From Escherichia coli (GTDB lineage Bacteria > Pseudomonadota > Gammaproteobacteria > Enterobacterales > Enterobacteriaceae): DNA of 64,000 bases. This document shows, piece by piece, positions 46,335-49,025 of this stretch (the stretch's first letter is position 1; the number at the start of each line of letters is the position of its first letter). Both the position numbers and the translations under genes were made by a program. Under the pieces are notes generated by a model. It was not told where the DNA came from and made no database searches. It worked only from the letters and a program-made list of their open reading frames with translations. The stretch lies in NCBI RefSeq assembly GCF_024223415.1, contig NZ_CP100502.1; one strand, written 5' to 3'.

Positions 46335-46349
46335 CGTGCCAATCCGGTA
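46335..46349 (+). repeat. sfx recombination site (shufflon distal end)
   Basis: gtgccaatccggtac. Confidence 0.8.
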
Positions 46350-46813
46350 CCTGGGGCGCTCCTAAAATTCAATTCACAACGCAGACCTACAACATAGCTA
46401 AAAACACTCGTAATTTAAGGCTCGGGGTCCATGCATATTGCTCATGGACTTACCTGAATGGCTCACCCTTTGGTGGTTTTCAACAGGTATATTCCGACCA
46501 AAACAACGTTTGGTATGTGAGTAATTATGCTTGGGGAAATTATGAGTCTGGTGGGACCATATCAGTCACATGCCTCAATCTTCCTGGTGCTGGAGCTTAA
46601 TTAAAGGGGCAACAGTAGGCATCGACATGTTCCTCATCAACACCATCACCAATACCGTACATGCGTGTTCCAGTCATAATGTATCCAGTCGGACATTGAA
46701 TCGGCTTGTAATAGATCGAACCACCACTCTTACCGCCGATAAAGTGATTCATTGCTACGGATGATTTGTACCAATTACATGCTGAGTAATTAATTTTATT
46801 ACCCCCTGACCAC

Positions 46814-46851
46814 CGACCGGATTGGCACTGGCCTACGTGCCAATCCGGTAC
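46814..46851. repeat. Head-to-head sfx pair separated by tggcctac
   Basis: gtaccggattggcac tggcctac gtgccaatccggtac. Confidence 0.8.
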
Positions 46852-47395
46852 GTGGAAGACTTCTGGTTCGCTCAATGGTTCTTACACAAACTTAGGTTCA
46901 CATAGAGGTTCATTCTCAGGGCGGAATTCAGGGGGCAGTACATTGTTTATTTATGCATCTGGAGGTAATGGAGGATCTGCCGGAGGTGCATGTGCAAATA
47001 CATCCCGACTGCAGGGATATGTTGGTGGGACGCTAATTAGCGTGAATGCCAGCAATAACCCTGCATATGGAAAAACAGCCTTTATCAGCTTTGCTGTACC
47101 TGCAGGTACTTCCTATCAGATAACATCCTATCCAACAGAAAATACATCATGTGGTGCCGGGGTATTTTCAGTATTTGGATATCAAACTTAATTGAGCGTT
47201 ACACACGACGCAATACAACCTGTCTTATGCTCGTATTTGTACCATTTGCGTGAACCTGCTGGGCTCTCAACTACCTGGCAGTAGTGGGCATCCTCTGCGT
47301 TGCCCATTCTGGCAATGGCACAGAAGTCGAATTGCCCCAGATAACCTGTGGTGGAAAGCTGAGTAACTTTGAGTTTTCCACCTATTGTCCCCCAC

Positions 47396-47433
47396 GTACC
47401 GGATTGGCACTGGCCTACGTGCCAATCCGGTAC
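47396..47433. repeat. Head-to-head sfx pair separated by tggcctac
   Basis: gtaccggattggcac tggcctac gtgccaatccggtac. Confidence 0.8.
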
Positions 47434-47684
47434 CTGGAGAAAGGTAGGATCTGGTGAGCTTCAAATTGCTACAGCACAGGCCACAGGTTGGCGCTTTCCT
47501 GGAGCAACAGCTACTTGTCCAACTGGAAAACGTGTTACAGGTGGCGGCGGAATATGCACCTCACGAACTGGTTACATATGGCTTACCAGGTCATTCCCAT
47601 CAGCCAATAACTCATGGTCGGCTGCGTGCGATACAACCGAAGATCAGAATGGTTCAATAACTGTATATGCCATTTGCCAATAAG

Positions 47685-49025
47685 CTATTTCAAGCAAGTA
47701 ATCTTCATAAAGTAGGACGAATACTGTGTGTAGTTTTTGGCTTGCCAAGTCATCTCGCCGTTAGAGTCAGGCATGTCAATAGGAACGACTTCTGTTTCTG
47801 CCATTTCACGCCCGTCAATACGATAGGTGTTAATACACAGTTTAAACCTCCCTAAGACCTGTGTGTTTTTGGGATATAACGTAAATGTTTTTATATTCGT
47901 CCATATCGACGCTGATGATGATTTCCAGGTACCGGATTGGCACGAAAGTATTGCCCCTGTATTATCGCGGCCTACAAGGCCGTTAGGCGAACATGATGCG
48001 CCAGCAACGGCAGTTCTTTCCAGTTGTAAGTATTCACCAGTATAAAGGCGACCATCAGCCCGAACAGTACCGCCTTTCACCTGACCGCCGGTATAGATGC
48101 CCTTGTTGTTTACACTTCGAACCCATGATCCATCGGACATATAAAATCCGCCACCGTGAGTTTCATTGAGCCAGCCTTTACTGTTACGAGTAATTAACCA
48201 ACCATTATTACTTCTGATATCACCGCCAGCGGTGACATTTACGTCAAAGTTTCCGCTATTGCCTTTTACCTGACCGCTGAAAGTGCCATTTACACCATTC
48301 ACATTGCCGCTGAAATTACCTGTCTGGGCATTTACTGCCCCAACGTTATTCAGGTTATTTGATCCCATATCAATGGCCGTGTGCATTTTGTTTAAGTCAG
48401 GGCGACCATTGACCTGGAATCTGTAAAGACGATCAGTGTCCTCAGCTGCACCACTAAGTTCATCTGTCGATAACAATACGGCAATATGCCCGTTACCGCT
48501 TTTGGCACCATAATTACTTAAAGCTACTGACCAGGAACGTAATGCACCTGTGGCTGTTTTGCCGTCCTGGATATATCCACCAAGACCAGTGGTAATATCC
48601 TTAGCCATCTGGATAAGTGCTTTCACTGGATAAGGTGTGCCACCACTGGATACAACCATTGCCTGTAGTAATTCCGGGTTTTGGGCGTTTCGAACCACAT
48701 ATGCCTGTAACCGCTGCCCCTCGCTGTTTGTCTCAGTAAACCCGCTGGACAAAAAGCCGGTATTTTTCAGCATGGTTGTCGTGATAACGGCAGGAGTTGT
48801 TGTGGTACTACTGCCCTGGAGAGTCGTGTAGTTTTTCCCTATATAAGAGCGGGCCGCACTGGTCCAGTTGCTGACAAGACGTGCTTCAGTTTGCCATCCT
48901 TTTGTTTGAATATAGTCCTGCCATATGCCCGCTCCCCAGGCAATCAGGAGCATAACAATCAGTAAAGCCGCGCCAGTTTCCAGCGATGCCCAGCCTCGGT
49001 CATATTTTTTCATCAGATTACCCAT
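47685..49025 (-). CDS. pilV: PilV thin-pilus adhesin (type IV prepilin-like) in its current shufflon configuration, 446 aa
   Basis: Prepilin-type N-terminus [21 protein letters not shown]; last ~80 codons lie inside the shufflon. Confidence 0.85.
47929..47943 (-). repeat. sfx site inside pilV marking the constant/variable junction
   Basis: gtaccggattggcac within the pilV reading frame. Confidence 0.8.

Follow-up and report, generated by a model that had tools for sequence, protein, structure and literature searches.

A ColIb-P9-type IncI1 shufflon with three segments, most likely frozen as PilVB' by an ISEc8 insertion in rci

Introduction

The shufflon at the end of pilV in this Escherichia coli plasmid raises two questions, namely which known system it represents and whether its alternative tails can still be exchanged. 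The DNA was analyzed as one stretch of 64 kb, hereafter called the window. The pilV gene, on the minus strand, encodes the tip adhesin of a type IV thin pilus, and its constant part ends inside an sfx site. When a shufflon is active, its tyrosine recombinase, Rci, swaps strands within the 7-bp core GTGCCAA of any two inverted sfx sites and inverts the segments singly or in groups, so that one of the tails A, A', B, B', C, or C' is placed in frame with pilV. The tail selected in this way alters the recipient lipopolysaccharide that is bound by the pilus in liquid mating. The sfx site itself has been described as a nonconserved 12-bp left arm, a 7-bp crossover core, and a conserved 12-bp right arm, in which the three bases at positions 7 to 9 are variable (PMC9045228; PMC11852207).

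Judged by its sequence, the locus is a canonical IncI1 shufflon of the ColIb-P9 type that matches the segments of R64 base for base and is already known. The only addition to the known picture is its recombinase gene, which is disrupted by an insertion sequence, such that the six tails are probably no longer interchangeable in this plasmid.

Results

Arrangement of the sfx sites

The whole 64-kb window was searched with the 15-mer GTGCCAATCCGGTAC, allowing up to three mismatches, and 100 dinucleotide-preserving shuffles served as the null. Exactly six matches were obtained, all of them within positions 46336 to 47943, while the chance level was 1.4 and none of the 100 shuffles reached six. An earlier note on this DNA had also counted six sfx sites, and the search bears out that number. 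The sites are located at 46336-46350 (+), 46814-46828 (-), 46837-46851 (+), 47396-47410 (-), 47419-47433 (+), and 47929-47943 (-), so that three lie on each strand and the strands alternate along the array. The first site starts at 46336 and not at 46335 as previously given. Five of the six sites are exact copies of GTGCCAATCCGGTAC, whereas the copy at 46814-46828, which had been counted as a further repeat of the same 15-mer, reads GTGCCAATCCGGTCG and differs at two bases. This is the normal variant of the C' site and is found in R64 and ColIb-P9 as well.

The array consists of two single outer sites and two pairs. The members of each pair are divergent, their GTGCC ends lying opposite one another on either side of the 8-bp linker TGGCCTAC, which is present at 46829-46836 between the paired C' and A sites and again at 47411-47418 between the paired A' and B sites. 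The two pairs and their 8-bp spacer had been recognized before, but their description as head-to-head is corrected here to divergent. Each 19-bp sfx repeat is composed of the core GTGCCAA and the right arm TCCGGTnnnTGG, and all six agree exactly with the sites in R64 and ColIb-P9. At the junction between the constant region of pilV and the B' tail, the repeat occupies 47925-47943 (-) and carries the right arm TCCGGTACCTGG, while decoding of the sites placed the outermost repeat on the rci side at 46336-46354 (+).

In all plasmids compared, the variable bases of the right arm (nnn) always move with the segment interior, in agreement with the published assignment of core and right arm. The left arm of each paired site is made up of the 8-bp linker and 4 bp of the partner's core, and thus 16 bp are shared by the two 31-bp sites that make up a pair. 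The idea that the crossover regions of adjacent sites nearly abut is supported by this overlap, but it does not set the locus apart because R64 and ColIb-P9 have the same arrangement. Likewise, the pairing that the earlier note had singled out is canonical in both reference plasmids, where it comes with an identical 8-bp linker. The linker TGGCCTAC was seen in both orientations among the compared records, including R64 and ColIb-P9, which would be expected if the linker moves together with neighboring segments that invert as a group.

Segments and alternative tails

Reading frames were followed from the cysteine codon (TGC) of each sfx site. As had been claimed, two convergent frames are present in each of the three segments, and rather than running into the early stops that would point to a decayed shufflon, all six are open. 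Their lengths are 87, 76, 117, 73, 87, and 85 amino acids along the window, a range of 73 to 117 counted from the cysteine that replaces the earlier estimate of roughly 80 to 110. The expected start CQSGTW holds for five of the tails, while C' begins with CQSGRW. In each segment, the stop codons of the two convergent frames overlap or adjoin, and the segments are therefore coding over their full length.

Segment C (493 bp, 46336-46828) matches the inverted segment of both R64 and ColIb-P9 without a mismatch. It carries tail C (87 amino acids, 46337-46600, plus strand) and tail C' (76 amino acids, 46597-46827, minus strand), the latter starting at the variant sfx GTGCCAATCCGGTCGGTGG. Segment A (574 bp, 46837-47410) agrees at every base with its inverted R64 counterpart and contains tail A (117 amino acids, 46838-47191, plus strand) and tail A' (73 amino acids, 47188-47409, minus strand). 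Segment B measures 525 bp including both sfx sites (47419-47943), with no mismatches to the inverted R64 segment and one to that of ColIb-P9, and it supplies tail B (87 amino acids, 47420-47683, plus strand) and tail B' (85 amino acids, 47685-47942, minus strand), the tail that is now fused to pilV.

The tails were named from three sources. CP034252.1, in which shufflon proteins C, C', and B are annotated as products, provided the names of tails C, C', and B; plasmid pCMY-136, in which the ORF holding the 117-amino acid tail has the NCBI product name "prepilin, shufflon protein A", provided that of tail A; and the orientation convention of the R64 record was applied. Tail B' was named as the convergent partner of B. 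One GenBank record attaches the label pilVA to the isoform with the 73-amino acid tail, which we took as a generic label.

The pilV isoform in frame

The pilV ORF spans 47685-49013 on the minus strand and encodes a PilVB' isoform of 442 amino acids, which would become 446 if the in-frame ATG at 49025 were used. The protein consists of a constant region of 357 residues followed by CQSGTW and tail B', with reading continuing through the sfx site at 47943. Pfam Shufflon_N was matched over residues 33 to 361 with 621 bits (7e-187). Together with the agreement of all tails with those of R64 and ColIb-P9, this match upholds the reading of the locus as a three-segment shufflon with six alternative C-terminal tails of PilV. 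The constant region, which ends in ...SCQSG at the sfx site at 47943, shows no differences from that of R64 PilV. In the assembly, the order is rci-C-A-B-pilV, with PilVB' as the isoform expressed.

The prepilin peptidase gene pilU (49013-49669, minus strand) was found as an ORF and is annotated likewise in related plasmids. It lies with pilT and pilS directly upstream of pilV in the thin-pilus operon, at whose end the shufflon is placed as in other I-complex conjugative plasmids, and tra genes are found on the flanks. The whole window has an IncI1 backbone, with tra, trb, nikB, and pil genes.

Comparison with R64, ColIb-P9, and close relatives

R64 (NC_005014 / AP005147) and ColIb-P9 (NC_002122) were used as references, and their sfx sites were decoded by one script. 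Segments C, A, and B, each inverted relative to the R64 record, show no mismatches to R64 over 1592 bp and zero to one mismatch each to ColIb-P9. When the tails were aligned to those of the two references, as the earlier note had proposed, all six were 100% identical at the protein level. ColIb-P9 likewise bounds its segments A, B, and C with six sfx sites, four of them in two divergent pairs joined by the 8-bp linker, and its shufflon is 1608 bp long in all, as here. However, its record shows the order rci-B-C-A-pilV and expresses A, whereas the order here is rci-C-A-B-pilV with B' expressed, and its rci is intact, whereas that of the present plasmid is split by ISEc8.

R64 shares the PilV constant region (no amino acid differences), Rci once the insertion sequence is disregarded (no amino acid differences), segments A, B, and C (no nucleotide differences), the sfx sites, and the paired layout. 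In contrast to the present locus, it has seven sfx sites, four segments, and seven tails, owing to an additional D segment of 329 bp with one more sfx site and tail D'. Taking out the 329 bp that separate the D' site of R64 from its A' site, a direct repeat of it, yields exactly the layout found here. As the excess of R64 is an interval between direct sfx sites, the three-segment form is what recombination between such sites would be expected to leave behind, and we infer that the event proceeded in this direction, from four segments to three. The same distinction appears in the literature, where R64 is described with segments A, B, C, and D, ColIb-P9 with A, B, and C, and R721 with A, BD, and C (Sekizuka et al. 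2017; PMC5430464).

With the shufflon region as query, megablast hit 2,567 records in PLSDB, for the most part conjugative plasmids of the IncI type from Escherichia and Salmonella. R64 and ColIb-P9 are 99 to 100% identical to the window over the compared parts. Plasmid pLH09-a-B, from Swiss poultry, is 100% identical to the window over 23.7 kb, and pF1022-4 is also close. These two are the nearest relatives by backbone, which is 100% identical in the parts compared. Both pLH09-a-B and pF1022-4 have an intact rci and segments A, B, and C without D, in arrangements unlike that of the window. The lack of D in both suggests that this segment was already absent in the lineage, while the differing arrangements in near-identical plasmids indicate that rearrangement does take place in the presence of an intact rci. 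In CP034252.1, the B' and A sites of the retrieved locus are separated by a gap of about 325 bp (2694-3019), the size of a D segment. The sfx decoder found no D' site in this gap, which may represent a D segment whose sfx site has changed or been lost.

More distant systems share the principle. The IncI2 shufflons (R721, TP114, and the mcr-1 plasmids) have the consensus sfx GTGCCAATCCGGTNNNTGG, homologous tails, and an Rci-type shufflase, but they differ in backbone and in segment set (A, BD, C), and their sequence identity is only partial. The serine-invertase tail-fiber switches Gin, Cin, Pin, and Min also exchange C-terminal receptor-binding ends by DNA inversion. However, they rely on serine recombinases that work with Fis and an enhancer, their segments number one to a few, and they have no sequence relationship to the shufflon, which is not a member of that group. 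The TP114 shufflon comprises four segments and eight tails (PMC9045228), and segment loss is common among IncI2 shufflons (PMC5430464; PMC9045228).

Insertion of ISEc8 in rci

In an IncI1 shufflon, an intact rci is expected next to the segments, its start usually about 50 bp past the outer sfx site. Here, rci is at the expected position but split. The gene starts at 46284 on the minus strand, and after ...SNVI the frame departs from that of Rci. The 5' fragment (46167-46284, minus strand) covers codons 1 to about 39 (MPSPRIRK...SNVI) and ends at the right-hand copy of a target duplication, while the 3' fragment (42680-43724, minus strand) runs from codon 40 to the stop and holds the whole Phage_integrase catalytic domain (residues 122 to 275 of 384) as well as the C-terminal extension. 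The interruption, after codon 39-40 with the junction sequence CCTCGCTGTACGCTTACTGATAACATTGCTCCGGTAAAAC, is due to ISEc8, a 2442-bp element of the IS66 family at 43725-46166 (plus strand) that was identified by its ends, its 8-bp target duplication, and 100% identity to annotated copies. Its terminal inverted repeats begin with GTAAGCGTACAGC (GTAAGCG at the start), and the 8-bp direct repeat TGATAACA is present on both sides, at 43717-43724 and 46167-46174. The element carries tnpA (43796-44197), tnpB (44194-44541), and tnpC (44591-46129), all on the plus strand and matched by the NCBIfam models for IS66 TnpA, TnpB, and transposase, respectively.

Removing ISEc8 and one copy of the duplication in silico restores a 384-residue Rci that is identical to R64 Rci at 384 of 384 positions, and the reconstructed gene differs from that of R64 by one nucleotide. 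This exact restoration points to a clean and probably recent transposition. The locus is accordingly a member of the shufflon family by descent, and its enzyme gene is a pseudogene. The earlier note had advised looking for isoforms in related plasmids with an intact rci, a proviso that is apt given that rci here is split by an insertion sequence.

Searches for the rci::ISEc8 junction gave no match in PLSDB or among 5,426 complete E. coli genomes, and as an exact 40-mer it was also absent from the JGI metagenomes. Two plasmids were considered as second cases and rejected: in both pEC488-KPC-2 and E. fergusonii p18B226LT2, the ISEc8-like element sits within the shufflon itself and rci is not hit. 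The E. coli W plasmid pRK1 was also discarded as a comparison, its paper stating that rci and the shufflon are both absent. As a separate observation, the IS66-family elements in the retrieved loci of the IncI plasmids pEC488-KPC-2 (4737-7372) and p18B226LT2 (5349-8291) lie between or within shufflon segments, and the rci-shufflon region seems to have been struck repeatedly by ISEc8-like elements of this family.

Discussion

The features described above are very probably explained by an IncI1 shufflon in the three-segment ColIb-P9 form, whose rci has been split by ISEc8 and which is most likely fixed as PilVB'. The insertion would abolish switching, hold the order at rci-C-A-B-pilV, and leave PilVB' as the isoform expressed. 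That Rci activity has been lost and the shufflon frozen with pilV-B' is most likely by analogy with TP114, in which the shufflon was locked experimentally by deletion of rci (PMC9045228), although the lock is judged here from a single assembled sequence, which cannot reveal ongoing inversion. Moreover, no segment shows any decay, and the insertion could accordingly be very recent and make little biological difference. PilVB' has been reported to recognize GlcNAc(alpha1-2)Glc in the lipopolysaccharide of the recipient (PMC5430464).

The main alternative is that the shufflon still switches, either by means of a truncated Rci expressed by read-through from the insertion sequence or by means of the rci of a co-resident I-complex plasmid. 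An internal ATG at 43690 (Met50) opens an ORF of 336 amino acids in the 3' fragment, which keeps the complete Phage_integrase domain and the C-terminal extension, and all sfx sites are intact. However, the first 49 residues are missing from this fragment, and in tyrosine recombinases these form part of the N-terminal DNA-binding domain. Expression of the fragment is also disfavored, as no sigma-70-like promoter was found reading outward from the left end of ISEc8 toward the rci 3' fragment. Rci could also be provided in trans by a further I-complex plasmid sharing the cell; within the 64-kb window, no second rci was found. In TP114, very low levels of shufflase are enough for switching (PMC9045228). 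On balance, we regard continued switching as improbable.

A different question is whether loss of Rci, if it is the correct reading, was selected. The insertion could represent an adaptive, naturally selected lock on PilVB' rather than an accident, which would also save the cost of expressing the shufflase. If so, PilVB' would have been fixed where recipients with the GlcNAc(alpha1-2)Glc core type dominate the host population. We consider this doubtful. It could also be that the Rci fragment starting at Met50 has an altered activity, which is less likely still than an adaptive lock.

It is very unlikely that the three-segment layout or the segment order is an assembly artefact arising from a mixture of isoforms in the culture. 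Misassembly of shufflons has been warned of in the literature (PMC5430464), and among the top-ranked PLSDB records no colinear match covers the 1.7-kb region in one piece, all of the matches being in multiple pieces. However, every sfx site is correctly paired, every frame is open, the total of 1608 bp is exactly that of ColIb-P9, and the closest relatives lack D as well. Moreover, disruption of rci should leave a homogeneous population, which would therefore be easy to assemble. A decayed, nonfunctional remnant, as might be supposed from the interrupted rci and from the nearby traE that is likewise hit by an insertion sequence, is hardly credible and is refuted for the segments and pilV, considering that the six tails contain no stops or frameshifts, the segment DNA has no mismatches to R64, and pilV with its constant region is intact.

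With an ISEc8-split rci and a shufflon most likely frozen as PilVB', the plasmid carries little weight for discovery because the shufflon is a textbook one. Nevertheless, annotation can confidently assign names to all six tails and to PilVB', the isoform expressed. The disrupted rci predicts a fixed range of recipients in liquid mating and an unambiguous assembly of the shufflon. The plasmid would thus be a natural counterpart of the rci-deletion constructs made in the laboratory and, should the isolate be obtainable, could be of use.

Two further features of the window lie outside the shufflon. An IS3-family element of about 1.33 kb (40641-41970) breaks traE, leaving an ORF of 186 amino acids (41969-42529) compared with 274 in R64, and this insertion is common to pLH09-a-B, where traE is annotated as incomplete. 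Downstream of the shufflon, the only stretch that diverges from R64 is 59093-60690, with an alignment gap and a 572-bp block at 90% identity; it corresponds to the pilI-pilK/traD region, in which the window is colinear with ColIb-P9.
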